From positions 124,001 through 188,000 of the forward strand of contig NW_026250406.1 of the NCBI RefSeq assembly GCF_024521635.1: a stretch of 64,000 nucleotides of DNA. Direction: 5' to 3'. The position numbers were made by a program, and so were the translations under genes. The DNA comes from Tricharina praecox. Its lineage: Eukaryota. The notes under the pieces are model-generated. The model saw only the letters and a list, made by a program, of their open reading frames with translations, ran no database searches and was not told where the DNA came from. Below are positions 2,743-60,563 of this stretch, piece by piece. Positions within the stretch are counted from its first letter, which is position 1. Each line of letters begins with the position of its first letter.

Positions 2743-2790
2743 TCCATCCGCATGTCCATCCGCATGTCCATCCGCATGTCCATCCGCATT
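2743..2790. repeat. (TCCATCCGCATG)n tandem repeat, about 4 units
   Basis: Read directly from sequence. Confidence 0.85.
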
Positions 2791-3939
2791 CCGCATTCCC
2801 GCACGCACCACACTCGTATGTAAAAACCGGAAATCCCACGATCGCACAAGTAATCGAGTCGTGGTGGAATGGTGGTGGTGGAGTGCCGGTTGAATCTAAA
2901 AGTCACCCCTCCCACCCCACAGCGGCGATGCAGGCCCGACTCCCACTTCCCACTTACCGTACTTCCCGGCATCGCGTTGCCACGGCCGACTGACCGACTG
3001 TCAGAAATCCCAGCCGCGCCGGAAGGACCGCAGGTGCGGTGCGGTGGGGTGCGGGGAGCATCATGGTTAGTTAGGCGCAGGTGATGGTCTACCTACATAC
3101 ATAGACACGGGCACCTACCTGGCTGGCTGGCTGGCTGGTTAATATATCGAGAGCGCGCGAGTGGGCAGATACCGTACCTACCCCAGAAAATCTGGATGGG
3201 TGCGTATCTAGGTGGGTGCGTGGGTGCAAGGTGGGTGTGCTGCCCCTGGCATGAGGGCGAACGAGGGGTAGGATGGGATGGGATGGGATGTGAGGAGTGG
3301 GCGGGGTTTTTTTACTTTCTTTCTCGACTGCTGTCGGCAGAGATGGATGCGAAGGACGGATGGTTGTGCGATTGTGAGTGGAGTGAGAGTTTCGATGCCA
3401 TTGTGAGCGAGACCAAGTGGGGCGAATGGCGGCGGCGACAATGGACGAGGGAGCAAGGCGAGATCCGTCGATTGGCATTATTTCGATGGCATCGTTTTGG
3501 CTTTGTTGAGGGCCGGGGCTTCGTCTTCGTATTATCCTCCCCTTCCGTCGTCGGCGACTCGTCGTGGCTGCTTGCGATTGTCCGGTGGCTCGCCTCACTC
3601 CCGCTCCGACTCGTGCCTCTCTCTCGGTCTCACGTTCTGCCCCACCCCCCGGAGACTATCAACCGAGTGAACATCAAGCATCATGGTTTGGACTTGTCCG
3701 TGTTCGGTTTCGCCATGGTTAACTTAGCACTTGGTGCTCTTCCAGCAAGGTGGTTGCAGCATCGTCATCGCTGGTGCCAACTTTGTGTGCAGGTAGAGTG
3801 GAGTTGTCGTGCGGCGAGGACAGGGAGCTGGGGGCCAAGGCAGGCACGCAGGAAGGCAAGGGTAAGAGGGTAAGCAAGATTGAGGTGGATAAAGTTAGTC
3901 GAGAGTTGGGGAGCGGAGAGTGTAGAGCAGAGCAGAGGG

Positions 3940-29440: not shown

Positions 29441-31252
29441 TGTGAATGATGTAGAAGGAATATTGGGAGGTGGCGAATTGGTGCGGGAGTCGTGCGTTCG
29501 TGCGGGTTGTTTGGATGGCAAGGAGAGAGAGCGTGCTTGAAGGATGAGAAACCTTTCAGCTATAAAGGGTTGTGAAGATGTCAAATCAGGATAGACACCG
29601 GTTGATGGGCAAGCGTCGTTTTCCTGGCTCGGCGCGGGATAGCATTGAGCAGTGAGGGGTTTCCGGGGCACACCCCTCTAGCCAACCAGGGGAGAACCCC
29701 GCTTCCCGAATCTTCCGCTCACTTCTCGACGACAAATCGACGCCCCCAACCAGCTGTGGGTCAATTGCGACAGCCCATGACCGCACGTTGTCGTTTTCCG
29801 CGACGCATTTATCCGGTGCCCACGATCCGTCTGTTAGGTGTCCGCAGCGAGCCAAAGTGCACGTATGCAGACTCAGAGTGCCGTCCACTCCACCACCGGC
29901 AGAGTGCACGCGGCACTCTAGACAGACGGCGCCCTGCAGCAGTATCGCAGATGCGCAGTAGCCCACAATGAACGCCGAACCTGTCTCTTGCAGCGAGGAC
30001 ACAGACCGCCATGTCCGTTCGGCGTTCTCTTCTCCGGTTTCTCCTCGGATTTATCCCAGTCCCGGCCGAAGACACTCCATCACTAAGCCGCTGCAATCTC
30101 GGCTTCTACACCCCGCCAACCCACCCCGCTCCGAGGATGGATGCATGTCAGCTTCTCCGTACGAATGAAATAGCCTGTTGTCAGGAGTCTCCTCCTCAAC
30201 AAACACATCGCCGGCAATAGATAGGCGTCCGTCATATATGCATGGGAAATCGTTAAATTCTATGAGTGCTTTTTCCTCACTGTTTGTTCCGTTGCTCGCG
30301 TTACACGGCGGCGCGCCTACCCTCGATATGTGCGAGGCGAGTTCATTCGCCGTCTTGGTCACTGCCCATCATGTAGAGCTCGGCACTTGTCGCTAAACAC
30401 GTTCTGGGCGACTGCAGCACACCGGCGATAGCGTGGACGTGAGTGACGAGTCGTGAAGGGCTGCGAGGCGAAAACGCTCGTTCCCACCGTATACGGCCGT
30501 AGAACAGAGAGCTTGACACCAAACGAGCTGTATCGCAGCGAGCCGTTCTGGTCTGCTGTTACGGCCGGAATGGTGTGACCATATTCTTTCGATCTGATAG
30601 GTGATTCGCTGGTGTGAAAGGCGAAGGAGCGGCCCCAACAGCGGTGAAGTCGACGTCTCGGCCTGCTACCTAGTTCTGAGTGACCTTGACGAGACCAAAG
30701 CTCTTCGCCGTCACACGAGAAACCACATCTCGGGCGAGTCACGAGTGCACACTTCCGGGGAACTCTGAAGCTGGATCTTTGAGTCCCCATGCCCGGGCCA
30801 ACGATATAGTAACCCTCCATGCGGCAGTTGATTCTGGAGAGAAACAGCCGTGCCTTGTCTCCTCCGGTGTTGGCTATTCATTATCAACTGTAACAGAGAG
30901 GGTCAATACCGAGGGAAGTGCTCCAGTTGAACAAGTTCCGAATGTCCGCAGATGATCCAGCGCGGCGTGTCGGCTCACTATCTGCAAAATCTACGGCTGG
31001 TGTCAAACTGGCCTCTCCGGGGCCCAACAGGCAGCTCCAAGGCGAAAGGGGTGGTTTATAAATGAGGTGGATAGAAGATTATAATAGTATCCGGTACAGC
31101 AAAAACATCATAAGCAGCGAGCTCTCTCTACATACAAATTCCATAGACCAGACAATCTCTGCATCTCCAAACATCCCATATCCCGACACTTCCCGACCCG
31201 AACAGCTCTTCCATCATCGTATCCGCCATAGCGGATCCTCCGATCTTGGTTT

Positions 31253-34047
31253 CAACATCAGGATAGCGCATTTGAACTCGGGAAGTGAAGACTTCCCGAG
31301 CTCTCCGTACAACCGGGTGGGCTTCTTCGAGTGAAAAGGAGGGGTGATTGGCCACGCAGTTATACTGCGCGCCGACATTGAATCTGAAGTTGGCAGTCCT
31401 CGTCAACCCAGACACAGCAAAATGGGAGGTTCGCCTGCTGGTATTCCAGCAGTAGCCAGTCCGCGTGCTGGCGGCGATCGTTTGTCGCCTTGATTCGAAA
31501 CTCCATGATGGCCGGACACCCTAGGGAAATGGATGTGAATGTAGGGCCGAGGCCCTTCTCACCGTCCTGATGAAAGTTAATCTTCTGGTTCTCAAGGTAC
31601 CCCACATTGAGAACCTCGTTAAACTCCACATCAGGGTAGAGCATCTGAACCCTCAGAGTGAGGAGTTCGCGAGCTCTCCGTACAACGGGGTGGACCTCCT
31701 CGAAAATGACGGTCGGTTGGTTCGCCACGTAGTTGTACTGGGCGCCGACATTGTACGTGAAATGGGCAGTCCTTGTCAACCCGGACACAGTCTGCATAGT
31801 TTACCTACGGAAAGGTAGGTTCGCTTACTGGTATTCGGACAGCAGCCAGTCCGCGTCCTGAAATATCCCATTGGTTGCCTTATTGGCAAGCATGTGTGTG
31901 ACGGTCCCGCAACCCGGGGAACAGTTCCAAAATTCTCGGCAGCACAAGGGCTGCATACTGAGCCGCAAAGGCCCCGAAGGGCCCTTGCGACGGACGTCCA
32001 TGGGCGCCGAAGCGCCGTCGTCATCCACATCCAGATCGTCGTCTTCCTTTTCGCTGGGAGACCTATGCTCCCTCCGCTATCGCTTCGAGATTTTCGCCTT
32101 GATGCGAAACTCCATGATGGCCGGACACCCTAGGAAAATAGTTGTGACTGTAGGGCCGAGGCCCTTCTCGCCGTCCTGATGGAAGTTCATCTTCTGGTTC
32201 TCAATGTATCCCACATTGAGAACCTCGTTGAACTCCACATCAGGGTAGAGCAACTGAACCCTCAAAGTGAGGAGTTCGCGAGCTCTCCGTACAACCGGGT
32301 GGGCGTCCTCAAAAGTGACGGTCGGTTGATTCGCCACGTAGGTAGTTGTACTGGGCGCCTACATTGTAGGTGAAATGCGCAGTCCTCGTCAACCCGGACA
32401 CCGCAGTTGGCGCATGACCAACAGTCCCATAACTCTCAGCAGCACAAGGGCTGCAAACTGAGCCGCAAAGGCCCCGAAGGGCCCTTGCGAGGGACGTCCC
32501 CGGGCGCCGAAACGCCATCATCAACCATCACTGGTTTCAGCGGGGAGGGCATTGGTCGCCTTGTTGGCCAACATGTGCGTGGCGGTTCCGCTATCTGGAC
32601 GCTCGAGAGTTTCAGTAAATGTGATGCTCAATCGAAGGCATCAGCGGTCGTGCCAATCTCGGGAATCAGCGACATTTCGAGGTCCTCTTCGGCCGCGGAA
32701 GATTCGGTTTTGATGGTTGGCTTGGGGCGCGGCTTCTTGGAGTTCTCCTCCGAAATGTATCTCGCAGTGGCTGCAATCCTGAAACGCCCGGTAGGAATGG
32801 CCGCGTGCTCCCAGATGGTCTGTATCTTTTCGCCGTGCATGATCACGATGTCTCCGTGATTGAGTTTCAGAGACAGGCGCGCCCGCTTCTTTTCGCCTCT
32901 CTCTTCAGCGGCCTTGTCGTCTTCCTTTTCGCTGGGAGACCAATGCTCCCTCCGTCCTCGCTTCGAGTTTTTCGCCCTGATGCGAAACTCCATGATGGCC
33001 GGTCACCGTAGTTGGCGAATTGCCAACCGTCCCATAACTCTCGGCAGCACAAGGGCTGCAAACTGAGCCGCAAGGGCCCAGAAGGGCCCTTGCGAGGGAC
33101 AACCCCGGGCGCCGAAGCGCCGTCATCATCAACTACCACTGGTTTCAGCGGGGAAGGAGGAGCCTCGGATCCTGCATCCCAAGGCGTCCGCGCATTAAGG
33201 CCTGTCACCGCAGTTCGCACATTTCCAGCAGTCCCAGAACTCCCTGCAGCTCAGACGGCCGCATTTCGCACAGCAAAGGCCCTTCCAGCACTTACGAGAG
33301 ACGTCATCAAGTGCCAAAGTCCCGTCGTCGTCCACATCCATGACAGGCTTGAGGTGTGAAGAAGGAACCTCAGACCCTGCATCTCAAGGCGTCCGCATTG
33401 AGGAAATCATAGTCGTAGACTAGATTCGGTGGAGGAAGATTCACACCATCCATCTGCCAGATATTAGTAACGAAATGAGACTTTAGGAGACTGGTACTTA
33501 CCGTCCACCACAGTGGACATAGGGAGTTCACCCACATCCATCCTTGTGCATAAACTTGTAGGGACTCTTGGTCCCAAACAAGGCACACTACACCATCAAT
33601 CTGCCAGATATTAGTAACGAAATGTATCTTTAGGAGACTGGTACTTGCCTTCCACCACAGTGGACACAGTGAGTTCATGCTCATCCACCCTTGTGCATAA
33701 ACCTGTGGGGACTCTTGGTCCCCAACAAGGCAGCAGCCAGCACCACCAATCTGCTAGATATTAGTAGCGAAACAAGTCATTAGGAGAGTGGTACTTGCCT
33801 TCCACCATAGTGGAAGCATTGGTTGCCTTATTGGCAAGCATGTGCGTGACGGTCCCGCAATCCGGGAACTCGTACTGCATGATGGTCAAACCATCCTTCA
33901 CCACACGTGTATACGTGATACCGTCTCCAACGCTGTTCTGCGGAACAGTGTGGCCGGTGTAGATGACGCGGTCGGAGTTGGCGGGTTGTGTTTGTGTGAA
34001 GATGGGTCTCCGCTGCGGGTAGACCCGGTCACCGCAGTTCGTGCATT
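31253..34047 (-). pseudogene. Patchwork of about 13 rearranged fragments of the 3' half (40714-42070) of the AlkB-family gene at 39401-42054, in inverted orientation
   Basis: Reverse complement aligns piecewise to the gene. Peptides such as TVSGLTRTAHFTYNVGAQYNY, FHQDGEKGLGPT and LKLNHGDIVIMHG recur. Several pieces carry stops or frameshifts. Confidence 0.95.
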
Positions 34048-36644
34048 GCTAATATTAATGCGACCGAGAGAAAAAAGGAGGAGTAGGGAGAGGATGACGA
34101 GGACGAGGAGGAGGAGAGGATCGTGACCACAAGGGTCTGAGATAGCGATGGTATAGTCGCAAGGACCTGATGTTGAGAGAAGAAGGTGAATGATGGTAGA
34201 GAAAGAAGGAAGACAGGTGGTGGTGGTGGCAGCAGCTTAGATATAAGATTCGTGTGTGTGTGTGGGCGGAAAAAGCACGTCGCGGACAGTGTGGGCGGAC
34301 CGTCGTGGGCGAAAAGCCCGTCGCGGACAGTGCAGGTGGACCGTTGTAGTCGAGGGCGAGGGCAAGGCGACGGCCGCCGAGCAATGCGTGGATGAGCTTG
34401 CGATTATCACCACTCTCGACCGTCGAAGCCACCCCACCCCACCCGTTCCAGAATATTGGTCGACATCATTCCCTCCTGTCTGATATAGTATGTAGCTATA
34501 GGAGTGTAATCGTGCGCATACTCTCTGCAGTCGTTGTAAAACTAATTGCGGCCGAGACCACCACTTTCGCGAAGGATGACGATCCAACCGCACGGATTGT
34601 CACTCGGAAGAAGTATGACTTCACTCCAGATAAACGTGAAGGTCACGATTGCATGGACAGTAGAGTATTCATTGCCATAATCTAGACAGGCCGTAAGCAA
34701 TTGATGATTAGACAAAGCAGCTTATGATTGCATACCTATCTACCACTAAGCTCGAGCCCACTCCTTTTCTTACCGGTGTCCGGTAGGAAGCAGAGGAAAC
34801 CCGACACTGCTCGTGCCCGAGCTCTTTTCCTGTCCACCTCTATCATTCCACCCCAAAGTCTGCTTTGGCGAGTGACTTCCAATGATCAAGTATCGTAGAA
34901 GGCTATCACTCAAATCGCCACACATACTAGCTACGTCAGCAGTGTGTCGTAACTCAATAAAGGCACAAATCGAATACCTATCTCATCCCATACGTCTGGT
35001 CATCTCCCCTCCTTGCCGTAACTGTTCTCCACACGCCGAGTAGTTCCGCACAAACCAGATGCAGAATCAACATTCATGGTTTCGGTATATAAAAGTAAAG
35101 AACATAGAACAGGCTGACAAGTCGTATCCTTTTTCTCAACAGTCAATGTAAGTCCCCGGGGGGCAAGTCCTACCGTACCTGAAAGTTGAAACTCCTTATC
35201 CGGGAGCAACCTGTATTCCAGCCGATTCGCCACCAGCCCCCTCAGAGGCAGCCATCTCTATCGCGCTATGTCAACATTTCATATCGCTCATTGTCCGCCT
35301 CGCTATCGTCAAATTCTAGCTATAGTTCGACGTGTTGTGACTTGCTTCGCTAACCTATTCGATATCTGCTCTTCACCATCTTGGATCCCAGGAGATAGGT
35401 ATAAGTGCGGGATATTGAAAGGACATGCTCCACTCTTTCGATTCGCGTGCTAGGAAACATCAGCATATGCAAAGGCAATGGAGCACCTTAGAACTTACTC
35501 TTTCGAATGACCACGGCCCTGCGGTGGGATTCCCAACGCGGAAGCTTCTCGGATGGAAAACACTAGGTCGGGGAAATGTTCTTCCGAATGCCCCAATGAT
35601 TGCCAATTTGCAATCAGCAATATCTGTTTGCACCCAGCGATGATTAAGCCACCGATGACCCCGAGTCCAAGTATGGCGCTCCTGTCTCATGTGGTCGTAC
35701 GGCGTCTCGAATCCGGAATCAGTGCACCTCCTACGCACCAAGTGCCGAAGCCTCAGACAGTGTCTGGGCGGAGGGCAATGCCGGCGATGGACATTCAGCA
35801 CCCTCTCGGGATCCATTTCGCAAAGTCGCACTCAACTACCCGTTTGCTGGTAGGTACGGAAGCATGCGTCCGTATAGTAATGCCACCCCCAGCCCAGTTT
35901 GAGACCATTCTCTCCAACTCATGGTGTGTCCAGGTCCTTCTCCTTGTCCGTCCGCTCACTTTTCGCTTGCGAAGCTCAGTCTGTCTCTGCGTGCGAAGCA
36001 GTAGTAGGGAATCTGCATCCGAATCGACCACCGGAATACCTCCATGAACGGATTCAAGGCCAAGTGTGTCGTTCGCAGCGATAACGACTTGTCGCCGAGT
36101 CGTTTAGCCCAATGGTTGGTGGTGGTCTCTGGTAGCCCAAACCCGGCGATACCTTGATAGCATTCCACAGCCTGCCGAGTCTTAGCATCTTTTCAAACTT
36201 CTCAATTGTTCTCGGCCTACCAAACTACACATAGCGAAATTGTCGCCGTCGGTAGGAGCTGTCGTCTGTTTGATTCACCCGATAAATTGTCAGTGTTTTG
36301 CTTATAACGCCGGGTAGGTACTTGATAGTGGGACTGACAGCGACAAGTTGGTAGGGTGCTCGTCGCAGCGCGTTCCCGTAGTAACTAACTCGGTAGCTAT
36401 GTTTACTGAATCGAATCGCCGCTCTTGACTTCTCCGCCAGGAATGTCGATACGTCAAACTGCACTCGGTGATATGTAAACAGCCGCTATTTCGGGTGTCG
36501 GCAGGCAGCGTAGCAACAGCTGCAAGCCTGCAACACCAACAAGCTCAATGCCAAGCTCGCCAAAGCTGGTCCGTGCGTCAGGAACGCGAGAACCCCAGAT
36601 TCTTCCTCACACCACCGCCATTGCCACCCGCCATCTCCACGATC

Positions 36645-37084
36645 ATGCCGTCCTCATGCAAAGATATACGTACGTGCGTCGGCCCTCTCCTACTAGCCAG
36701 TCACGGTCCTAACAAGAGCTTTCTTCCTTCCAGGTGCGGCACTGGCCTCGTGCCTTCAGTACTCCGATTGCGTCCTGATCGATCGGAACAAACCGGCCGA
36801 TTGCCTGAGAGAGCCGCTGCTGCAGACGTTACCAACAAGATGTCAGCAGCTTAAGAAGGGCTACGGCGAGTGCAAGTACGACGACCAACCTGCTCCCCGA
36901 CGAGGGCAAGATGGCGATGCTAACGCTGCATAGGCGAGGAATGGTGGACATGCGCAAGCGGTTCCGAGGGAACCAACCGGTTGCCATTCTCGAGGGGAAG
37001 GAACAGTCGAAAAGCGGTGGACAATTGTACGCGGGCAAGCCGGCATATTCGGATCCCAAATCGTCGGAGACCGAGGAAAAATAA
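36645..37084 (+). CDS. PET191: Cytochrome c oxidase assembly factor PET191/COA5 (exons 36645-36669, 36734-36875, 36934-37084)
   Basis: Spliced translation MPSSCKDIRAALASCLQYSDCVLIDRNKPADCLREPLLQTLPTRCQQLKKGYGECKRGMVDMRKRFRGN... matches the PET191 Cys pattern and the CKRGxxDMRKRFRGN signature; both introns are GTACG...CTAAC...AG. Confidence 0.93.
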
Positions 37085-38179
37085 GAGGAGGTATGCGGGC
37101 AGGCGGCCATACTCATGGGCATGATGCGTATCATCGAGGATGCGGTCTGGCGCTGTGGATTGGGACATGTGCTGGGTGTTCTCGGCGGAGTTGTATGATG
37201 AATTCACGAGAGCTATGTACTTGAATAGTGCCGGTAACTTCGGGGCGGGGTCATCTTCTCTTGAAGCACCCGTTCCTCCGAGGAAGAGGAGCTTGAAGCC
37301 CGTCCATCCATAGGAATCAAGGACTATACATCCACGCGACACCCAGGCCACTGCGAAACCATGGACGTTGGGACTCGGGAGCTTCGAGTGTGCTGCCTGT
37401 TCCCAGAGCGTGAGATGTAACTTGTGCGTGCTATGTATAGTATACGGAACAGACCGTTGCTCGTCTGCAGAATTCCAGAATTGCAGGGGTTCATTCGACT
37501 CGGCTGTTCCATTCGGACGTCGATGGCCTAGCTTTTGCCCACTCCCTAAACCCACTGGAAGAATTAAGCAGGCAAGCATGCACACATCCGTCATCGGGGA
37601 AAGAACCACTTGAGCGGGTCGGGAGCACGTGTCGCATAGCCATACATATAACCTCAGTCCAACACCCTACGCGACCACAGCAAGTCACACTCCAAGAGAG
37701 AAGCCAGAGGGGATCGGAGCCAGCTCATCGATAGTTATCGACGTCCGTCCAACGCGATCTACCACCCGTCTCGTGCTGTGGCGGCTAAAGATACCAGCCA
37801 CCACATAAAGATCCACCAGCAGACCAGCCAGACTGCCATCCCGACTGAGCTGTACGTGTCCGTGAGCAGTTTCAATCGAAGCAGGCTCTGGGTGGAAGCG
37901 AATTGAGCTGAATTGACTTGGTTGTCCTGGTAAAAATAGAGTGAAGCAGAAGGAGGAAGCACCAGCAGTACATGCCAGTAGTACATACCAGCAGATTTCG
38001 TGTCTGGAGGAAAGCACTTAAGCCAGCGTAAATTCTCAGTCCGTTGGGAGGACAGCAGCAATAGATCCGGAGCTTCACGATCAAAACAACCGGAGCTTCA
38101 CGATCAAAACAACCAAAGCATCCGGGGCTGTCCAACCAGAGAATCCAGACACATTCAATCTGGGCCAACATAATCAGTG

Positions 38180-38464
38180 TCCTCGCTCAGACTGTCCTCG
38201 CTCAAGCTGTCCTCCTCGCTCAAGCTGTCCTTCTCGCTCAGGCTGTCCCCGCTCAAGCTGTCCTCCTCGCCCAGGCTGTCCTCGCTCAAGCTGTCCTTCT
38301 CGCCCAGGCTGTCCTCGCTCAAGCTGTCCTTCTCGCTCAGGCTGTCCTCGCTCAGGCTGTCCTCGCTCGGGCTGTCCTCCTCGCTCAAGCTGTCCTCCTC
38401 GCTCAAGCTGTCCTCGCTCAAGCTGTCCTCCTCACTCAGGCTGTCCTCGCTCAGGCTGTCCTCG
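38180..38464. repeat. 15/18-bp minisatellite, unit CTCGCTCA(A/G)GCTGTC(CTC/CTT)
   Basis: About 17 imperfect units; the minus-strand reading EDSLS has no in-frame ATG. Confidence 0.9.
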
Positions 38465-38739
38465 AATGACTTCACAGATCTAGCAAGACCCGAGCGCAGC
38501 TTCCCTGCTGTACGTATCGTACATCTGAGGTATCCCGCACATCTAAGGTACCCTGCGCTGCAGCTCTACATTCAATCCGTCCATATCGGGTAACCTCCCT
38601 CTAGATCTGTCGTTGTCCTGCAGCTCCATAGAACTTTTCCCTCTTGGAACCTTCAAAAGGCACGGCCAGCAACGGTCTCCTAGCAACCATTCAATTGCAC
38701 CACACGGTCTTTTGAGCAAGTAGTGTGCTCGCCGCCATC

Positions 38740-38745
38740 TATAAA
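38740..38745 (+). promoter_or_regulatory. Probable TATA box of the AlkB-family gene; 5'-UTR intron signals at 38894-39305
   Basis: TATAAA followed by a pyrimidine-rich leader, GTAAGT donors at 38894 and 39146, and GCTGAC...TACAG acceptor ending at 39305. Confidence 0.55.
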
Positions 38746-39400
38746 GACCCCCCGGTCGTCCCATCTTCTGGTTTTTTTCATCCCATCCTCCTCAATCCTT
38801 CAATCCTCCATAGATCCTTCACAACCTCCGACAATTTCCTTCCACAATTTCCTTCCACACATTCCTTCCACAGTTTCCTTGCACCCAAATAAAGTAAGTT
38901 CAATCTCCTTCATCGTCCGATAGTTTCATCTCTGGTTCCATCGGTGCACTTGCAATTATTCGGCGAACCATTGTGGCGGTGCACAATGTATCATCAGTAG
39001 TGGCTCGCCGAACTTTGTCGTGCATTTCTGTTCCTTATTTTCGACTTTCCCTTTAGCTGTCTCGCCCACCGGTTGATAATGAATGGGAGCTGACCCTCAG
39101 TTGATAGGAACACAATGGAATCATCATCTATTCCAAAGAGCCTCAGTAAGTACCCTCGCTGGCCTGTTTCATCTCTTTCACATCCTCTCTCACCTGTCTT
39201 ATCGCCTTGGAACGATTCTATCTTTGTTAACCTTTGTTTTTCTTTCCTCATGTTGCGAGAATTTATCATGTATCCATCAATGCTGACATCCTGCTCCCGC
39301 TACAGACGGCGAGACTGGTTCTCTGGAACTGGTTTCTAGCCCGCTCTCCAGCCCCCCATCCACCATTCTGACGCCTGTATTTGGGCCGATCAATGAAGTC

Positions 39401-42054
39401 ATGGAGGATATGATGGACATGGGGGATTTCTCTGTGTCTGATCACGAAGATGTCACTCCCACTACATCTAATCTCGAAGAAGATGTCGCTCCCACTGCAT
39501 CTATACTCGAAGAAGATGTCACTCCCACCACATCTAATCTCGAAGATTTCGCTCCCGCCACATCTGATCACGAAGATGTCGCCCCCACCGCTGAGTTCGG
39601 CAATAATGTGCTGGGAAATACCACTGCAATGGAGGTGGACACACCCGTCACTGGTTCATGTATGCCTTTCGCTACCCTTAATTCTTATTTATCCGCAAGA
39701 ACTGACTGATATCACTAGCCATCAACCAAGCTAATCCGGAGACGCTTGCGGATGACAACCACGGCCCAAATAAACCTCGACCGTGCACCCAGTAAGTTCA
39801 CCAACCACTTCTCTATAAGACACCAATCTAATCCCTACAACAGATGTCAAACCCACAAGAAATATTGCGATAGACAGATTCCTTGTGGGTCTTGCATCGC
39901 GAAAAAGACGCCACACCGTTGTGAGAGGGCTCCGACGACGTCGACTCGTGTACCGCAGGTAAAAGCAAATCGAGGTATCAAGCACAAGGCCAGTGCGGTA
40001 CCCCTCGCAGGAAACCCCCACAAGCTCTTGAAGAAAGACAATACCGATATCAGCAAGGATGTTCCGAAACCGGCTACAAAACCGCCCGGATTGCGTCTAC
40101 CAGACATCTGGTGCGAAGTATGTTATTCCAGACTCAATAGTTGCTCTACTTTTCCTAACTTATACCTCTAGACGCGCCAAGAGCTTTGTGAAGGGCTTCC
40201 TTACTACCGAGCTTACCAGAGCGGTGCATACGGCCATGATGGCGTGGTCCATGGGTACCTTCTGGATGGCTGTCCGTCCGAGCGGGAGTTCATGAGCGGC
40301 AAGGTGGTCATGTCGCACTGCGGAGGAAAATCAGAGGACGCCGGAAATGGGATGCGAAAGCTGCGACAGAACCAAACCGTGGACGACATCAGGGTCAAAT
40401 CTCTTCTGACAAACATGCAGAACCAGATCCCTCTCGTCTTGTTGATTGGTAAGTAACTATATCTATACTACTTTGCGTCATTGATTGCTGACTCGTACGG
40501 ACAGGGAACCAGTGCGGAGCCAGCCCGAGCCAGCTCCATCACCGCTATGCGGTGATGGACTGGTTCAAAATAACCCACGCCTGGGAGGAGCAGTGCACTC
40601 TCAGCAAGTTCACGAGGTGGAGGTTCCGCTTCGAGAAACTTGATTTCTCGACCGATGGCTGGTGGGCCACGGAGGTCTCGGAGATCGATCGAGAGGCCCA
40701 GGTCAAGGGGGCGGTCTGCCTTGTCTGTAAACAAGAGTCCCCACAAGTCTATGCACAAGGGTGGATGTGCATGAATTCCCTATGTCCACTGTGGTGGAAG
40801 GCAAGTACCAGTCTCCTAAAGACTCGTTTCGTTACTAATATCTGGCAGATGGATGGTGTGAGTCCTCCACCAGTCAATCTAGTCTATGACTATGATTTCC
40901 TCAATGCCCGGACCCCTTGGGATGAAGGGTCCGAGGTTCCTCCTTCACCCCTCAAGCCTGTCATGGACGTGGACGACGACGGGGCTTTGGCGCTTGATGA
41001 CGTCTCTCGTAAGTGCTGGAAGGGCCTTTGCTGTACGAAATGCGGCCGTCTGAGCTGCAGGGAGTTCTGGGACTGCTGGAAATGTGCGAACTGCGGCGAC
41101 CGGGTCTACCCGCAGCGGAGACCCATCTTCACACCGACACAACTCGCGGACCCCCACCGCGTCATCTACACCGGCCCCGCCGTTCCACAGAACAGCGCTG
41201 GAGACGGTATCGCATATTCCCGTGTGGTGAAGGAAGGCTTCACCATCATGCAGTACGAGCTCCCGGGTTGCGGGACCGTTACTCACATGCTTGCCAATAA
41301 GGCAACGAACGGGAGATTTCAGGACGCGGACTGGCTGCTGTCCGAGTACCAGCAAGCGAACCTCCCTTTCCGTAGGTACACCATGCAGACTGTGTCCGGG
41401 TTGACGAGGACTGCCCATTTCACGTACAACGTCGGCGCCCAGTACAACTACGTGGCGAACCAACCGACCGTCACTTTCGAGGAGGCCCACCCCGTTGTAC
41501 GGAGAGCTCGCGAACTCCTCACTCTGAGGGTTCAGATGCTCTACCCTGATGTGGAGTTTAACGAGGTTCTCAATGTGGGGTACATTGAGAACCAGAAGAT
41601 GAACTTTCATCAGGACGGTGAGAAGGGCCTCGGGCCGACAGTCGCATCCATTTCGCTAGGGTGTCCGGCCATCATGGAGTTTCGCATCAAGGCGAAAAAC
41701 TCGAAGCGAGGGCGGAGGGAGCATAGGTCTCCCAGCGAAAAGGAAGACGACGACGAAGCTGTGGCCAAGGCCGCTGAAGAGAGGTGCGAAAAGAAGCGGG
41801 CGCGCCTGTCTTTGAAACTCAATCACGGAGACATCGTGATCATGCACGGCGCGAGGATACAGACCATATGGGAGCACGCGGCCATTCCTACCGGGCGTTT
41901 CAGGATTGCGGCCACCGCGAGATACATTTCGGAGGAGAATTCTAAGAAGCCGCGCCCCAAGCCAACCATTAAGGCTGAACCTTCCGCGTCCGAAGAGGAC
42001 CTCGACATGTCGTTGATCCCCGAGATTGGCACGACCACCGATGCCTCCGATTGA
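39401..42054 (+). CDS. Zn2Cys6 + SRA-like + Cys-cluster + AlkB-type 2OG-Fe(II) dioxygenase (introns 39660-39718, 39792-39843, 40118-40171, 40449-40504, probable GC-AG 40801-40848)
   Basis: Splicing gives one continuous frame. CTQCQTHKKYCDRQIPCGSCIAKKTPHRC = CX2CX6CX5CX2CX8C. The AlkB-type set is N-x-x-Y...HQD...SISLG...HGD...EH...RIAATAR. The SRA-like call for the middle segment (RQELCE..YQSG..SHCGG..RYAVMDWFKI..RFRFEKL) is by recollection of the family and is less certain. Confidence 0.88.
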
Positions 42055-42206
42055 GCATCACGAAACTTTCGGTTTTCTATTTTTTTCCGAGTCGACATGA
42101 TACGCACAGTTCGCTCATTCTGAGTCAGAACTTTACTTGATTCGATGACTATTCTTTCTACTACTATTTACTTTTACTTGGGGATTACAACGGAGTTCGG
42201 GGATAC

Positions 42207-42330
42207 GGGATTGGCTTGCTTTTTACTGGTTTGCGAGGGATGCGGGATTGGCGTTGCTTGATCTTATTGATTTGAGATGGATGCGGGATTGGCTTGCTTG
42301 CTTCTTACTGATTTGAGAGCGATGCGGGAA
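42207..42330. repeat. About 39-bp tandem repeat x3 in the 3' UTR of the AlkB-family gene
   Basis: Unit roughly CGGGATTGGCTTGCTT...TTACTGATTTGAGA..GATG. Confidence 0.8.
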
Positions 42331-43359
42331 TAATTTGCTTTGACGATTTGCATTTTGCCTTATTTTTTTCTTCTTCTACGATTTGCTTCTGCTTTTACGA
42401 GAACAACGAGGGGGAAAAGGGGGATTGTTAGAGATGATCATGATGAGATGTTTTTTCTTTCTTTTACTACCTGGACACGACGATAGCAGGTTCGGGTTCA
42501 GGTTCATGAGCAGCTGGATGAAAAATGGGGAAGCGATGACGAACGAGATGATTGAATGAACGAAATGATTGACTGCAATACGATGCGAATGATACAGCCG
42601 TTTCGTCGTGACTCGTGGATATGCACATGGCTCTTCCACCGTCGGCGGTGCCCATCAACCAGTGCGATAGATTTCTAGCCAGCAGAGAACAGGCTGGAGG
42701 ATCACTTCATTCCACCGACACCACACTAACTCATATATCTAGTTGACCAAGCCCACAGCAAGTCAAGACACACCAGACGGAGACCGACGAGCCCAAACAT
42801 CATATACCGGTAGTATTTCCGACACGACGGAGCGCACACCGTCTAGCCATCGTCCATCGTCCATCGCCCATCTTCCACCGTTCACCGCCCACCGTCCATA
42901 TTCCACCGTCCACCTTCCACCGTCCATCTTCCATCGTCCACCGTCCACCTTCCATCGTCCATATTCAACGCCTTCTACGGGGTGCGGCGTACGAGGTGTC
43001 GTGGGATTAACCATCTACCAGTACATACATATGTACGGGTCCTCGCCCAAGGAAGAAGGAAGGGAGGAGGGGGCCGTCAGTCTTCCGCCAGTCTCGACTC
43101 TCGAGCGGGAGTACCTATACCTATACGACGAAGCTGGGAAGACATTTAAAGCCCTTCTGAGACGGAGGCATGTACATACGCCGAGAACCGCCGGAGGATC
43201 ACTTTATGCCATCGGCACCTTGCTAATCTATAGGCATTTGTAGTAGACAGAGCCCACAGCAGGCAAAGACATCGGACGAAGAACGAGACGGAGACCGAGA
43301 TCGACAAGCCTAGGCACCATATACGGTGGTACTTCCGACAAGACGTAGCACACCCGTTT

Positions 43360-43616
43360 ATCGTCGAAGACCAGATATCGTCGAGGGCATGACATTTGCA
43401 ATAAGCCAGGGTATCGCCAAGGACTGGATATCTTCGGGCACCGCATATCGTCGGGGACGGGATATCGTCGAGAACCACTGTGATATAAGTCGAGGACCGC
43501 ATATCGTCGAGGACCGGATATCGTCGAGAACCACTGTTATATAAGTCGAGAACCGCATATCATCGAGGACTGGATATCATCGAGGATCACTTTGAGAGAG
43601 AGTCGAGGACCAATAT
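43360..43616. repeat. (ATATCGTCGAGGACC..)n roughly 17-bp repeat with a higher-order duplication of about 57 bp
   Basis: GTCGAG(G/A)ACC core recurs many times. Confidence 0.85.
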
Positions 43617-45023: not shown

Positions 45024-47780
45024 CTACTCTTCATCGGGCCTAGTATCGCCGTACTTCCACATTCCCAAGTGCGCCTCCATAGCCTGATGCATAGCCGCAT
45101 CAAGGTCCGCAATGACGTCCGCGTACGCGTTACGGATGCCAGGCAGCATCTTCGCGGGGACGTAAGCGAGGCCCGCGGCGACCAAGTCGCGGTTGATGCT
45201 CGCGCCGGAGGTCGCGGCTTCGGGCTCGAAGAGGGTGACCATGAGGGAGCCGTCCGACTTGACGTGGTCGACGTTGGCGACGAGCTGGCGGTTGCCAGTG
45301 AGGCTGACCACCATGTCGTAAGCGTCTTCGGCGTACATGCTATCGGAGGGGAACTGGAGGAACGACCAGGTTGCGTCGGCGGCCTGGGGCTTGAGACGGT
45401 CTGCCGAGAACTGGGGCGCGAGGGGACGCATGCGCGTCCATGAAATCTTCTCAGAGTTGCCGAAGTCGACGTAGAGGACCTCGGCTTCCTTTGCGGTACG
45501 GTCGACGTGGCGAATTCTGGCGCGGTAGAAAGTGTCGTCCTCGGTGAACTTGGCGGCAACGAGCTGGCCGACCTTGGGGGGTCCCTCGATCGGCTTGTTG
45601 TTGGCAGGCTGGAGATGGAACTTGCGGAAAGACTGCATCAGCTCCTCGAGGGCGGAGGTGCCGGCGCCAACAAGCTGAAGCTTCAGATTGCCGAGGGTGT
45701 CCGAGTGAGAAACGACGACATCGCGGTAGTCCTTCTTCCGCTCGACGGTTTCTTGCTTGGTGACGTAGCTCGTGGTGTCCTCTTGCTCGGCAGCCTCCTT
45801 CTCAGGACTCCAGTCGTGCCACATTCCCTTGTGTGCAGTCTTCGCCCGGGTCTCGGCCGCAAACAGTTCGTTGGCGTGTCCGGTCTTCTCGGCAGAATAG
45901 GCGTGGACACTGGCCAGTCCCTCCTCGACGAGGCCTCTGGCAACGTTCTCGCGGTTGACGTACATGGTACCGATGAAACCACCGACACGATCGATGTCCT
46001 CAACATCGATTTCGACATCGCGCTGCATGCACTTCTTGGAGACGTACTCTAGTGCTTCCGGGCCGAAGGGCTCCGACTGCTCGTTGGGGTTCCTTGCGGT
46101 TCTCGGGCATCGGATACCGCTCAGGATGAATGTGAGACGCGCATTCTCCTTGGGGATGATGACCTTGAATCTGGAACCAGATGCGACAAAGTCGACGATA
46201 GCGGGGACCCTCTTCTGGCGCTGGAGGAAAGAAAGATAACTCTTGGCCTTCTGTAGAGTCTCAGAAGCCTCGACCATCTTAGCCGACGCAGGTGCCTTCG
46301 AGGCGTACATTCCCTTCGACTCCTTCCTGGCAGCCTCCTCAGCAGCGGCAAGACTGTCCCAGATAGGAGACCGATCAGTGTCGTCCTTTCGGTGGCGAAC
46401 AACGGAAGCATATCCGTTCTCAACCATGAGAAGAGCGATGTTCTTGTCGGCCAGAGTGACAGTAGCCATTTCTCTCTCCTCGTAGCCCTCCTGTGCTGCC
46501 CGCTTTCCGTCGATGCTGACGCGTACGTGCTTGCCGATGAGCTTCTTTCGCAGGAACTCCTTAGCATCCGCCTGGAAGGGCGATTGCGCCGGGTCCGACG
46601 GCTTGGGCTGTCTGATGCTGGAGAGGTTGAGCTTCCGCTCCGCGCCGGCCTTGTTTCTCACAAAGATGGTATCCGCACTAAGGATACGCGAGACCACAGC
46701 ATCAAATTCGCTACCAGACTCCTTCTTCTTCGGTACGTGCGCCTTGAAGACTCGAAGCTGGTTGTCTCTTGCGTGCTTCTCGGCATCTCTGAGTCTGGCC
46801 ATTGCAGCTCCGAGGAAGCCGCTGTGGTAGTCCACACATCTGGCGTAACCCTGGGCAAGGAGGAGTTCGGCAATGTTTCCGGCAGGATGCACAATCGAAC
46901 CGACGAGCTGGCCTTGAGGGCTGACCCCGAGAAGGTCGACGTGGATAGTACGCTGAAGAAGACGGGCCTCGACGAAGTCCTTTGCCTCGTCACCGTACTC
47001 TTCACCGGGGGTGACCATCTGGTTCGCGTCCATTCGGGTAGAGAGAGGTGCACGAACACCAGCGAGGAGAAGAACAAGCTGCTGGTGAAGCTTGGGGGAG
47101 ATGATCATGCGAACCGCGAACCTGTCGGCGGAGATGACACGCTCAATGATGGCTGTGACAACAAGCAAAAAATATCAGCCTCCATCTCACGACATAGTGA
47201 TCAAACACAAACTCACCAGCAATCTGCTTCCCCTTATGCTCCTCGAGGAAATCATGCGGGCTAGCAGGCAGATCATATCTCGCATCGATATGATTATCGC
47301 CGCTCAAGTTCCACACGCCCTTTCCCGCGCTCCTCGCCTGGTCCTCGTAGATGCGGAGCTTATCGACCAGCACGTTGTCCTCGATCCTCTGCGTGTCGTC
47401 ACGGAGCTTGACCTGGCCCTCGGAGACGAGAACTTCCAGGAGCGAACGGCCGTCGGCAAGATTGACGATTCCCAAGTCGCGGTTGGTGTTGGGAACATTC
47501 TGCGTGATGACGAACTGCACTTCCTTGTCCACGACGAGCTTGCGCAGGTAGTCGCGGGATTGGAATGCATGGGGCTATATACACCGAGACGTCAGCAAGC
47601 AAGCCCGGCCTAAATAGATGCTCAAGCTCAGGTGGATGTGCGTACCTCGTCACCCTCGCGGCGGAGGCGCGGGGCGGAAACGTAGGCGAGTGTCAGGATC
47701 TTCTCGGCGTTGGATTTGCTCGACTTGAGGATCAAGGTGTCGCCGCTGGTGACAGCTTTCACTTTTGCGAGAAGAGCCAT
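45024..47780 (-). CDS. SND1: Tudor staphylococcal nuclease (introns 47645-47575, 47216-47153)
   Basis: Repeated SNase domains (VKAVTSGDTL, VISADRF, ILSADTI, VASGSRF) and a Tudor domain (AAKFTEDDTFYRARI...VLYVDFGNSE). Confidence 0.96.
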
Positions 47781-57711: not shown

Positions 57712-58460
57712 ACGGGAGTGAGTGAGACTTTGTGAATGAGACCTTGTGAGCCAGTGAGTGAGGAGGTGGTATTTGTTTGTGCAGTAGTACTACGGAATCT
57801 ACTATACAGTTTACTCAATCATCAACTCCGTCTCCCTCTAAATCCCTAGTTTACTCAATCATCATCATCGTCTCCCTCTATCCATCCATCCATATATCTA
57901 TGACAGCTATCTATGATAGCTATCTATATTTAGCGTAAAACGCCTCCTCCTCGAGCCGGCGGTTGACTTTCTCAACGACGGTACAACCTCTGTGCCTCAG
58001 ACTGCCTCCGAGGTCGTTGGTTGTGCGGTTCATAGGCGGGGGAATGGCAATGGGTGTTTAATGCGCGTCATGGCGTGGAATACTCAAGTGAGCGAGCGAG
58101 GAGGTATTTGTGCAGTGCAGTGCAGTACGGCAGGTACTACGGAATCTACAGTATCTACAGTTTACTCAATCATCATCTCCCATCTACCGTATATATCCAT
58201 CTATCTATCCATCTATCTATTCATCCATCTATCCATCCATCTATCCATCCATCTATCCATCCATCTATCCATCCATCTATCCATCCATCTATCCATCCAT
58301 CTATCCATCTATCTATCCATCTACCGTATCTATGATAGCTGTCTATCTATACTTAGCATAGAACGCCTCCTCCTCGAGCCTTTGCTTGACTTTCTCGACC
58401 ACCTCTGCGCCCCAGACCGCCTCCGAGGTCGTGGGTTGCGTGCGGTTCAGCTGCTAATCA
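57712..58460 (-). pseudogene. Two tandem partial copies of the last 25-30 codons and 3' UTR of the TCD-type gene
   Basis: [16 protein letters not shown] plus 3'-UTR blocks from about 58740-58980 recur at about 57712-58030 and 58085-58450; the second copy has an expanded (ATCC/ATCT)n. Confidence 0.9.
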
Positions 58461-58899
58461 TCTGCTGAGAGGGCATGGTGATATGCTGGGAGGGCATGGT
58501 GATATGCTGTCTGATGCGCTTGGAATACGGGAGTGAGTACAGGGAGCAGGAAGAAAGGGAGGCGGAACTGAGACGAGAGGAGGAGGAGGGTGCTGAGGCT
58601 GAGGAGCCGGGGGCAGGGAAAGCCACATCGGGCCACTCGATGAAAGTCGGGTCGGACAGTTGCGAGGAAACGGAGTGTGTACATATATTGCCATGATCTA
58701 CTTAGGTCGCAAGCAATCACTGATTAAACAAACAAAAATACGGGAGTGAGTGAGTGAGACCTTGTGAGTGAGACTGGGTGGGCGAGTGAGTGAGGAGGTA
58801 TTTGTGCAGTGCAGTGGTACTACGGAATCTACTCTACAGTTTACTCAAGCATCGCCTCCCATCTATGTATCCATCCATCTATCTATCTACATATGATAG

Positions 58900-60563
58900 C
58901 TATCTGTATTTAGCGTAAAACGCCTCCTCCTCGAGCCTTTGCTTGACTTTCTCGACCACCTCAGCACCCCAGACCTCCTCCGGCGACTTCCGGGCGATCA
59001 GAACCTCCAGCTCATGCTTCTTAGCCTCATCCTTCGTCATGAGCACCAAATTATCAACCTGCAGCCTATGATCATCCTCACCCCAGACGCCCTCCATCTT
59101 CTGACAAAACGGCAGAGGGAGCCATCTCGTGAGTGCGAGTCTGGTGGGGTACCCAGAGACGACACTCTTGCCCTTATAGACCTCCTCAACGACATATCCA
59201 ATATCCGCCTCTGTGAGCGGAAGCCTCAGACCCACCGCGTTCCCGCGCAGCCGGCTCTCTAGCCCCGCCAAACGCGCTTGTATGTCCTCGTACAGCTTTG
59301 TGCGGTTCTTGCCGAGCGAGTACTCCACCGGGTACGAGGCGACGTGCGTTAGGATGTGGTTCGCTACGCAGAGCCCGAAGAAGCCCGGCATCGTGCCGAG
59401 AACGGGGAGGATACGCGCACGGAATGTAGGCAGTACGCTGAGCTCCGAGACGCTGCCCTTTGAGAACTCTTCGTCTGCAAGGGGGAGCAAAGTGGCTTTG
59501 CCCGGACCAGCCCGCTCGAGTGAGTACACGACGGGTATGCCGGTGACGATGCCTTTTTGCCGCAGTCGACGCCGTGTGGACCGAGACAGTGGGTCTTCGT
59601 TTGACTCCGAGATATCGCCGATGTTGATCTGTAGTTTTTTCACGGTAAGCGTGGGGTATGGTGAGTGATATCTCGTGGAGCGACGTACCCTGGTAGGATC
59701 GCTCTTGCAGCCGGCGCCCATGGACGAAATCACGGGTATTCCTCTTGAGTGGCAGAAATGCAGCAGGTCGACCTTGGTATCGATATTGTCGATAGCATCG
59801 ACGACGTACGTGGGGTTGCCGGCCAACAGCGCCTCGCCATTCTCCATATTCCACAGCTCGTTCCGCGCATCAATCTCGACCCACGGCGCAACCTGCTCCA
59901 GGTGCTTCCGCAGCGCTTGCACCTTGGGCGTGCCCACGTCCGCCAGCGTCGCCACCGCGTGCCGGTTCAGCGATGACAAAGTCACTTGGTCGAAGTCTAC
60001 CAGTCGCACCTTCCCCACCCCGGAGCGCACGAGCATCGTCGCCGTCCAGGATCCTACGCCCCCGCACCCCACAACGATCACGAACGCGTCCCGCACCTTC
60101 TGCAGGCCGTCGTCGCCGAGGAATACGCGGTTGCGCGCGAGCTGCTCGAGGATCAAGTCTGCACGGCTTAGAACACGGGGCTGGAGGCGTGTGTAGATGC
60201 ATACCTTCGTCCCAATCGCCGCGCCTCGCTTTCGCCGCGAGTTCCGCATCCGGCTCGGTGTGCAACCTGGAGGTGGACGCCGGCGCGCCGCCGTATTCGG
60301 TAAGCTTGAGGCCACAAGGAAAGTCAGAGTTCTGTCGTTCGCTGTGCAAATGGGTTTCGGCGGCTACACACGGCGGTGGAGTCGTCCCGTGACCGGATCG
60401 AGCTCTTGATGTCCCGCAGTTTCTGGTTCTGCCGGGCCGATTGGAAGGCGAGCAGCGTGGTGCCCACGGCTACCCCCGATGCGACCGCTGTTAGCACCAG
60501 CTGCGCACGGTGCGACGAGAGCGGCCCCGTAATCGTCGACCAGTCTAGGTGGTTCGGATTCAT
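58900..60563 (-). CDS. tRNA threonylcarbamoyladenosine dehydratase (TCD1/TCD2-like, ThiF/E1 family), 3 introns
   Basis: N-terminal anchor QLVLTAVASG; EQLARNRVFLG, VVGCGGVGSW, DFDQVTLSSLNRHA, VVDAIDN, SSMGAGCKSDPT, RILPVLGTMP. Confidence 0.93.

Follow-up and report, generated by a model that had tools for sequence, protein, structure and literature searches.

How did a fungal gene come to lie beside a dense array of its own fragments, and does that array act on the gene in any way? The question is raised by a 2.8-kb array in the cup fungus Tricharina praecox, in which 12 pieces of a dioxygenase gene lie beside the parent gene, each inverted with respect to it, abutting one another and scrambled in order. 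The array is part of the 64,000-nucleotide stretch of contig NW_026250406.1 that we analyzed (hereafter the window, whose numbering is used throughout). A sequence-only reading of the window had proposed that sequence was added here repeatedly over time, as in a cassette archive or a fragment-trapping silencing locus. Our results support a history in several layers; the array itself is most likely decaying repair debris that serves neither to silence the gene nor to store cassettes for it.

The parent gene lies on the plus strand at 38893..42057, and its product matches Tricharina praecox BZA05DRAFT_471384 (836 aa). The product appears to combine a Zn2Cys6 part, an SRA-like part of divergent sequence, zinc knuckles and a dioxygenase domain of the AlkB-like 2OG-Fe(II) type, with matches to PF13532 (E 1e-17) and ALKBH3 (E 1.6e-4), and a weak match of the SRA-like part to SUVH5 (E 0.019 only). 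Fusion dioxygenases of the SAD/SRA-AlkB type have been described in fungi (PMC4738411). The parent product is a predicted nucleic-acid demethylase. RNA joints place introns on the plus strand at 38893-39108, 39145-39306, 39659-39719, 40117-40172 and 40798-40847 (the last GC..AG), and sequence reading alone suggests another at 40449-40504.

Pieces were called by BLASTN of 31000-34300 against 39400-42400 at word sizes 11 and 7. The 13 pieces of the sequence-only reading all proved real, with coordinates matching to within a few bases: 12 were recovered by BLASTN, all on the strand opposite to the gene, and the 55-nt piece G by alignment. The last two pieces of that list merge into one, Lo, giving a total of 12. 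All lie on the minus strand, and they range from 55 to 439 nt in length and from 70 to 95% in identity to the gene. Among the younger pieces, A (33819..34047; gene 41081-41309, 88%) has a frame open throughout and starts at the gene site at which D, Eo and Ho stop. B (33741..33814; gene 40785-40858, 89%) is chiefly an intron copy, and C (33590..33733; gene 40716-40859, 90%) carries an intron copy at 33601-33648, GC..AG on the minus strand, that has been removed in an RNA contig. D (33201..33603; gene 40699-41103) is 89% identical to the gene overall and 96% identical across gene positions 40964-41075, with one frameshift. F (32621..33011; gene 41656-42061, 89%) includes the stop codon and has a 15-nt in-frame deletion, while I (32025..32401; gene 41392-41764, 91%) has one in-frame stop, at 32077-32079, and one frameshift. 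The youngest piece, K (31480..31918; gene 41262-41700, 94.8%), contains two in-frame stops but is free of frameshifts; between gene positions 41380 and 41690 we counted 13 differences in K, in agreement with the earlier estimate of about 12 over some 305 nt.

The old class consists of Eo (32999..33200; gene 40899-41103, 71%), G (32550..32604; gene 41256-41311, about 73%, or 35 of 48 aligned positions, and missed by BLASTN against the gene), Ho (32392..32549; gene 40942-41105, 70%, with a BLASTN part of 32527-32392 = 40970-41105), Jo (31922..32033; gene 40964-41075, 70%) and Lo (31252..31500; gene 41291-41555, 73-79%). Eo is 86-90% identical to Ho and Jo, and each of the three bears a hairpin, which in Eo has an 11-bp stem that is missing from the gene. 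G is 81% identical to the end of A, and the two pieces stop at a common gene position.

Every piece derives from gene 40699..42067 on the plus strand, the 3' 1.37 kb (1369 nt), which runs from about residue 393 to the stop codon and a few bases beyond. Residues 1-392 have left no remnant within the 64-kb window, and the window holds no further copies of the gene region apart from the gene's own short tandem repeats. Because all 12 pieces come from this part and none from the 5' half, homology-guided copying fits better than a random trapping of fragments. The 48-nt intron (GC..AG) is kept in B, C and D, and copying was therefore at the DNA level, as the earlier reading had concluded from the retained intron. 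At word size 7, BLASTN also gave a single weak same-strand match, 32175-32244 (E 2e-4), which we rejected as a piece; it overlies a short palindrome within the gene copies, one arm of inverted-repeat pair I1. The inverted-repeat scan returned only three pairs, of 26-29 nt, with no inverted arms inside the array, whose pieces all point in one direction, and no terminal inverted repeats around it. There was no Rfam match in 30800-36600.

The array appears to be lineage-specific. Two relatives keep the syntenic order of transaldolase, small gene and dioxygenase (L002/L003 and L007/L008), neither has fragment copies in that interval, and flank copies were found at 0 of 29 homolog loci. Literature searches turned up no comparable locus described in a fungus.

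Shared-derived sites, polarized by two orthologs, show that the pieces differ in age. In the comparison of D with Eo, gene and D shared nine such sites, gene and Eo none, and D and Eo one. The corresponding counts were 5:0:0 for K versus Lo, favoring gene with K; 5:0:0 for A versus G, favoring gene with A; and 4:0:2 for K versus I, again favoring gene with K. Trees of the individual fragments agreed with these counts, recovering an (Eo,Ho,Jo) clade (support 100/99), a (gene,D) pair (97/95) and a branching order of G, then A, then (gene,K) (94/91). These results uphold the earlier inference that divergence is layered and that the array did not arise from one duplication. They place at least two, and probably three, age layers in the array. 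In the tree of segment 40964-41075 the old clade fails to group with the gene against two orthologs, making the source of that clade less certain.

Repeated addition is only part of this history. A 147-150-nt tandem repeat with homologous junctions is made up of B, a partial unit, together with C and the first part of D; this repeat and the (Eo,Ho,Jo) clade show that part of the array is internal amplification and not new additions. At the junctions, microhomologies span 4-12 nt, and they appear commoner at breakpoints than expected by chance. The motif CCGGGT occurs at exactly three sites in the copied 1369 nt, and all three are breakpoints: 41100 is the common end of D, Eo and Ho, 41263 the start of K, and 41396 the start of I. 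The start of F is one of seven CCGG sites (41665). The Ho-I join shows a 10-nt microhomology containing CCGGGT, and the K-Lo join an imperfect one of about 12 nt.

Pieces K and I are disabled by stops, D and again I by frameshifts, and the changes on the pieces' own branches appear near neutral. Non-synonymous or stop changes versus synonymous changes numbered 48:20 on young branches and 90:34 on old ones, compared to a neutral ratio of about 3:1, with polarization at synonymous sites being unreliable through saturation of the outgroups. Transitions outnumbered transversions by 101:74 in the young pieces. The earlier observation that RIP-like saturation is lacking is borne out, as CpA is the context of just 9 among the 70 C>T/G>A changes scored for the seven younger pieces. 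A RIP-mutated repeat was rejected on the same count, the C>T/G>A changes not being dominated by CpA.

We consider it probable that the array is a non-coding mosaic of unprocessed pseudogene fragments, produced by repeated homology- or microhomology-primed copying together with internal duplication and deletion; both the repair mechanism and the absence of function are inferred. Such a history would begin in the intergenic region with an old partial copy, in inverted orientation, of the 3' 1.37 kb of the gene; this copy would then have been amplified and trimmed locally. Later, at least once and probably twice, stretches of about 380-440 nt would have been recopied from the gene lineage beside the old pieces. 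The joins at short microhomologies could reflect replication slippage or break repair with template switching primed by microhomology (of the MMBIR/SDSA type), or alternatively microhomology-mediated deletion between neighboring copies of unlike age. The pieces are now decaying neutrally inside a region transcribed on the minus strand, and their position there would be enough to bring them into spliced RNA, no function being needed.

That the array is transcribed on the sense strand of its fragments is an observation new here. Contigs matching it exactly on the minus strand cover 31117-32133, 32104-32486 and 33472-33785 (overall 31117..33785) in X3 and X4, two runs from two studies that we classed as RNA from their spliced joints and uneven depth, not from run records; array bins that carry no RNA contigs, e.g., 32604-33037, are uninformative on transcription. 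Two spliced joints give minus-strand transcription, sense to the fragments, and at the joint 33600->33649 (side 129) the retained intron copy of C is spliced. The joint 31565->31828 in X4 is weak, with a 29-letter side. Contig depth over the array is similar to or greater than that over the parent gene in both runs, and a role for this spliced RNA may therefore exist.

The array could, for example, be a regulatory repeat locus, whose transcribed fragments trigger homology-dependent silencing of the parent, either through RNA, in a quelling-like route that would lead from aberrant RNA through RdRP to siRNA, or through premeiotic methylation (MIP). The transcription and splicing just described are in keeping with this, and head-to-tail fragments of one gene resemble the transgene arrays that induce quelling. 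Identity to the gene reaches 89-95% in four pieces 377-439 nt long, and there is a mild enrichment of C>T/G>A changes in CpG context (28/70 versus a 27% background). MIP is known from Ascobolus immersus (PMC13297926), in the same order as Tricharina. However, transcripts whose strand can be read from splice orientation were sense only, none being antisense to the gene, and the array lacks inverted arms. The parent is itself expressed in a run that also carries array RNA, where its transcript is spliced as far as the 3' UTR. Furthermore, the pieces are neutral and variable between strains, and the array was missing beside 29 of 29 homologs examined. The earlier suggestion of a silencing locus therefore lacks support in the strand of the transcripts and the layout of the array, and we regard this reading as unlikely.

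The pattern of substitution could instead point to one or more once-functional inverted paralogs, long held under purifying selection and then broken by duplications and deletions. NG86 dN/dS values of the pieces against the gene are 0.14-0.31, and those of the old pieces are 0.14-0.19 with dS above 1. A dead copy compared with its live parent is expected to give about 0.5 or more, and the low pairwise values suggest that part of the divergence may stem from time under coding constraint. The shortfall is marginal once faster third positions are allowed for, by rough arithmetic calibrated on 39 old-piece changes. Third codon positions hold 96 of the 163 differences in young pieces (59%), and open frames survive in several pieces, including ORFs of 145 and 121 aa. 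Nevertheless, the 5' half of the gene (residues 1-392) is traceless in the window, and substitution along the branches leading to the pieces looks neutral. The overlapping pieces I and K are of unlike age, and several paralogs would thus be required, whereas protein searches gave no other T. praecox paralog. We regard an origin of this kind as unlikely, too.

It is also conceivable, if quite improbable, that the array is a silencing trigger that renews itself and is specific to this gene, its breaks being repaired by fresh copying from the neighboring gene while its spliced sense RNA or its repeats feed RNAi or premeiotic methylation. Refilling of array breaks from the gene would allow such an array to keep pace with its target.

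The cassette archive of the earlier reading fares worse. Silent cassettes would act as donors of gene-conversion tracts that diversify or repair the expressed gene, and the layout is vls-like: contiguous, same-orientation partial copies, inverted, near an expressed gene. The signal of conversion is weak, and consists of patchiness in K, which has a 97-nt identical run (P 0.07) and gave P 0.07-0.08 in the tests applied (longest identical run and change-point), the signal in D sitting at that piece's poorly aligned edge. Three clustered strain differences in I (32078, 32079 and 32090) suggest a multi-base event. These observations are set against stops and frameshifts, near-neutral change on the pieces' own branches, and pieces that span differing segments and not one variable region. 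The would-be target is a conserved intracellular enzyme, whose gene-side changes are 22:28 non-synonymous to synonymous. Among the strain differences listed between the window and X2, a soil-metagenome DNA run with its own SNPs and hence a different strain, at least 15 fall in the 2.8-kb array and at least 12 in the other 10.2 kb covered, which fits decay of the array. Only one of those listed (41751) lies in the gene's homologous part, which X2 covers partly, and it equals the base of no piece. On this evidence a cassette function is very improbable.

Variant 'gene' contigs in X1, a second soil-metagenome DNA run, and in X3 bear bases of K, I and F. We rejected them as alleles, since cross-mapped or merged contigs account for them; the X3 contig on gene 41655-41954 with I and F bases was likewise taken as a merged contig. 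An X1 joint from 34109 to 41736 was disregarded (side 21, low-complexity ends).

We give almost no credence to a collapsed or chimeric assembly of gene reads, in favor of which nothing was found: contigs of the two independent soil-metagenome runs (X1, 30233-31419; X2, 32039-32486, 32461-32869 and 32840-33470) reproduce the array's lower border plus five inner junctions, one of these runs being a different strain, and the RNA contigs match the array exactly. Transposon capture of the Helitron or Pack-MULE kind was tried and rejected, there being no flanking terminal inverted repeats, no Helitron ends on inspection by eye, no other copies in the window and no transposon domains among 48 ORFs scanned at 22-50 kb, whose only domains were subtilase, PQ-loop, transaldolase, Tudor-SN and SOD.

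Compared to known systems, the array most resembles unprocessed pseudogene fragments and the products of FoSTeS/MMBIR, with DNA-level copies that keep an intron, disabling mutations and neutral decay. Like FoSTeS/MMBIR or slippage products, it joins fragments of one template head to tail, in scrambled order, at microhomologies of 4-12 nt. Unlike a single catastrophic event of that kind, it holds at least two to three age layers at one site. It also differs from such cases in that one adjacent gene, through its 3' 1.37 kb, is the source of every piece, three CCGGGT sites are reused, and the array is transcribed and spliced. In Borrelia vlsE/vls and the chicken pseudo-V genes, arrays of silent cassettes serve segmental gene conversion. 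The array shares with these its dense, one-orientation partial copies, inverted and a few kb from a single expressed gene. However, its pieces do not represent a single variable region as in-frame cassettes and they contain stops, the parent gene encodes a conserved enzyme, and no mosaic alleles were seen in the one second strain, partly covered. Sequence requirements of quelling and MIP are such that the array's identity (70-95%) and piece lengths (55-439 nt) lie at or below them. The array resembles those systems in its transcribed, repeated gene fragments, MIP being known in the Pezizales (PMC13297926), and differs from them as a natural locus whose parent gene is expressed. Helitron and Pack-MULE captures likewise carry same-orientation gene fragments with introns and are sometimes transcribed, whereas the array has no terminal repeats, no nearby transposase or helicase, a single neighboring source gene and no copies in the window.

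As repair debris, the array would document in nature, and unusually cleanly, how a gene and its own debris exchange copies repeatedly under the guidance of microhomology, in layers that remain readable because this fungus lacks RIP-like erasure. If it is inert, dead fragments can give rise to spliced RNA and to open frames (145 and 121 aa), which calls for caution in annotation. If the array acts on its parent, nature would offer a parallel to transgene-induced quelling or to MIP, with a candidate demethylase as the target, and the silencing of an ordinary host gene by repeats could be studied there. A self-renewing trigger, if true, would tune a predicted nucleic-acid demethylase in the very order of fungi where repeat-induced methylation was discovered.

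The array at 31252-34047 is an inverted mosaic of 12 fragments (pieces A, B, C, D, Eo, F, G, Ho, I, Jo, K and Lo) of the SRA-like/AlkB-like dioxygenase gene at 38893-42057 (+), hereafter the parent gene. A BLASTN comparison of the array and gene regions recovered 12 of the 13 pieces listed in a sequence-only reading (its last two forming Lo), on the opposite strand only and with coordinates agreeing to within a few bases; alignment, together with a match to the end of piece A, identified the 55-nt piece G, so the array had been described correctly. All pieces fall inside the gene at 40699-42067, and residues 1-392 of the parent protein left no trace of copies within the window. Identity to the gene is 94.8% for K, 88-92% for A, B, C, D, F and I, and 70-79% for the old class (Eo, Ho, Jo, G and Lo). 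The T. praecox protein was the closest protein for 10 of the 12 pieces, and B and C, which are mostly intron, scored best on an unspliced metagenome ORF. Simple tandem repeats aside, the array and gene were the sole duplication found in the 64-kb window, in which the gene region matched nothing else except its own short tandem repeats. Arrays of short repeats, tandem or local, lie at 38178-38464, 39446-39589, 42200-42329, 43423-43611 and 57716-58982, and two of them differ in length in the soil-metagenome DNA run X2 (16 nt deleted at 38615, 19 nt inserted at 42391).

Metagenome contigs show that the array is genuine DNA. One of them, from a second soil-metagenome DNA run, X1, crosses the lower array border (30233-31419) with zero differences, and X1 may represent the source strain. 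Three X2 contigs span 32039-33470, crossing five inner junctions, and derive from another strain, since they carry their own SNPs; both runs belong to one study. Piece I has three clustered inter-strain differences (32078, 32079 and 32090), suggesting a single multi-base event, and a stop codon in the reference strain's copy stands where the other strain has a gene-like glycine codon.

The parent product is the 836-aa T. praecox protein BZA05DRAFT_471384, except for a 16-codon in-frame intron. A Zn2Cys6 motif can be read in its sequence; it also has an AlkB-type 2OG-Fe(II) domain (PF13532; ALKBH3 match, E 1.6e-4) and weakly matches the SUVH5 SRA domain (E 0.019). Iyer, Zhang and Aravind (PMC4738411) describe in one passage fungal proteins in which a divergent SAD/SRA domain is fused to AlkB, and suggest there that such proteins are possible demethylases. 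Expression and splicing of the gene are evident in X3, a run taken as RNA, and RNA joints confirmed five of its introns, including an in-frame 48-nt GC..AG intron at 40798-40847. Copies of this intron sit in pieces B, C and D, and copying therefore took place at the DNA level, as the sequence-only reading had held from intron retention. In piece D the copied donor site is now GT. A Tudor-SN gene (SNase and Tudor domains; 45027-47174, minus strand) lies 3 kb past the parent gene, and we attach no meaning to it.

To resolve the age layers, derived sites were polarised with two orthologues, L001 and L003. The gene shared nine such sites with D and none with Eo (D and Eo shared one), five with K and none with Lo (K and Lo, none), and five with A and none with G (A and G, none); in the comparison of K with I, the gene shared four with K and none with I, and K and I shared two. 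Trees concurred, grouping Eo, Ho and Jo (support 100/99) and the gene with D (97/95), and placing G first, then A, then the gene with K (94/91), the last order resting on 50 columns. These counts and trees indicate that the array received sequence from the gene lineage on at least two, and probably three, occasions, which bears out the repeated additions proposed earlier. Over segment 40964-41075 the gene and the old clade fail to group to the exclusion of the orthologues, and part of the old clade's divergence is concentrated in one cluster, at a hairpin present in Eo, Ho and Jo and lacking in the gene and D. This 26-nt near-perfect palindrome (32464-32489, 31964-31989 and 33069-33094; 11-bp stem, -12 to -18 kcal/mol as DNA) occupies the site that encodes a zinc knuckle in the gene. 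The cluster may be one complex event, and the palindrome may be a short template-switch mutation.

The pieces contain stops and frameshifts. A RIP signature was absent, in keeping with the earlier remark that RIP-like saturation was lacking: only 9 of 70 C>T/G>A changes were in CpA context, and 28 of 70 in CpG. A rival explanation is that the pieces once passed through a period under coding constraint. Pairwise dN/dS between pieces and gene was just 0.14-0.31, and third codon positions held 59% of young-piece differences; however, changes on the pieces' own branches were near neutral (non-synonymous or stop to synonymous, 48:20 in young and 90:34 in old pieces, with synonymous-site polarisation being unreliable), and the dN/dS shortfall becomes marginal if third positions are about 1.4 times more mutable, by our own rough estimate. 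Differences among the old pieces (12 synonymous, 27 non-synonymous) also look neutral.

Part of the array arose by internal amplification. With 86-90% identity among them, Eo, Ho and Jo are mutual copies; a tandem repeat of 147-150 nt, whose junctions are homologous, is made up of B, C and the beginning of D; and A and G share an end point in gene coordinates. Three CCGGGT motifs lie in the copied 1369 nt: one at 41100, where D, Eo and Ho all end, one at 41263, where K starts, and one at 41396, where I starts; CCGG at 41665 marks the start of F. Microhomology spans 10 nt from Ho to I and about 12 imperfect nt from K to Lo, and a younger 3' piece comes after each old 5' piece. This junction pattern, together with the confinement of the pieces, points either to homology- or microhomology-guided copying beside older pieces or to deletions at microhomologies that join adjacent copies of different age. 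Independent random capture of the seven younger pieces is unlikely, as all lie in the 3' 45% of the gene (P ~0.004 by our own arithmetic, which assumes independent capture and would be broken by unit duplication).

Comparison with relatives indicates that the array is lineage-specific. The order transaldolase, small gene, dioxygenase is kept in two metagenome relatives (L002/L003 and L007/L008; 65% and 51% protein identity), with no dioxygenase fragment in the syntenic interval of either, and the window has about 2.2 kb more than they do between the transaldolase and the small gene. No extra DNA copy of the gene lay in the flanks of any of the 29 fetched homologue loci; 11 of these had at least 7.5 kb of upstream sequence, and the closest relative (L001, 73%), with 2 kb upstream, is uninformative on this point. 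In L007/L008 the transaldolase gene (2482-3359) is inverted relative to the dioxygenase gene, with the small gene's orientation unchanged.

X3 and a further run, X4, behave as RNA: neighbouring genes show canonical spliced joints, and depth varies between 0 and >400. Contigs from these runs are identical to the array over 31117-32133, 32104-32486 and 33472-33785. In one contig piece C lacks its intron copy (33601-33648; GC..AG, minus strand; shorter side of 129 letters), and a second joint, 31565->31828, is GT..AG on the minus strand, with only 29 letters on one side. Because the spliced joints read the minus strand, the array is transcribed on the fragments' sense strand, not antisense to the parent mRNA. 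Upstream, a spliced minus-strand transcript at 35.05-36.4 kb (35052-36500) has four confirmed short introns (49-73 nt) and neither a long ORF nor a Pfam match; this transcript may be non-coding and divergent from the small gene at 36.5-37.1 kb, which is highly expressed, and the array may lie within the same transcribed region. An 88-nt stretch (35052-35139) looks like a conserved or multi-copy element: contig depth was far above its surroundings in three of four runs (X1 ~55, X2 ~33, X4 ~124-130; X3 12.4), loose contig ends occurred at one or both edges in all four, and it gave no tRNA or Rfam match.

The functions proposed in the sequence-only reading, a cassette archive or silencing, are unsupported: no open cassettes, mosaic alleles, inverted arms or antisense RNA were seen. 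The array is best read as a transcribed, decaying pseudogene mosaic produced by recurrent microhomology-mediated copying, duplication and deletion, for which a silencing role via RNA or repeat-induced methylation is possible.
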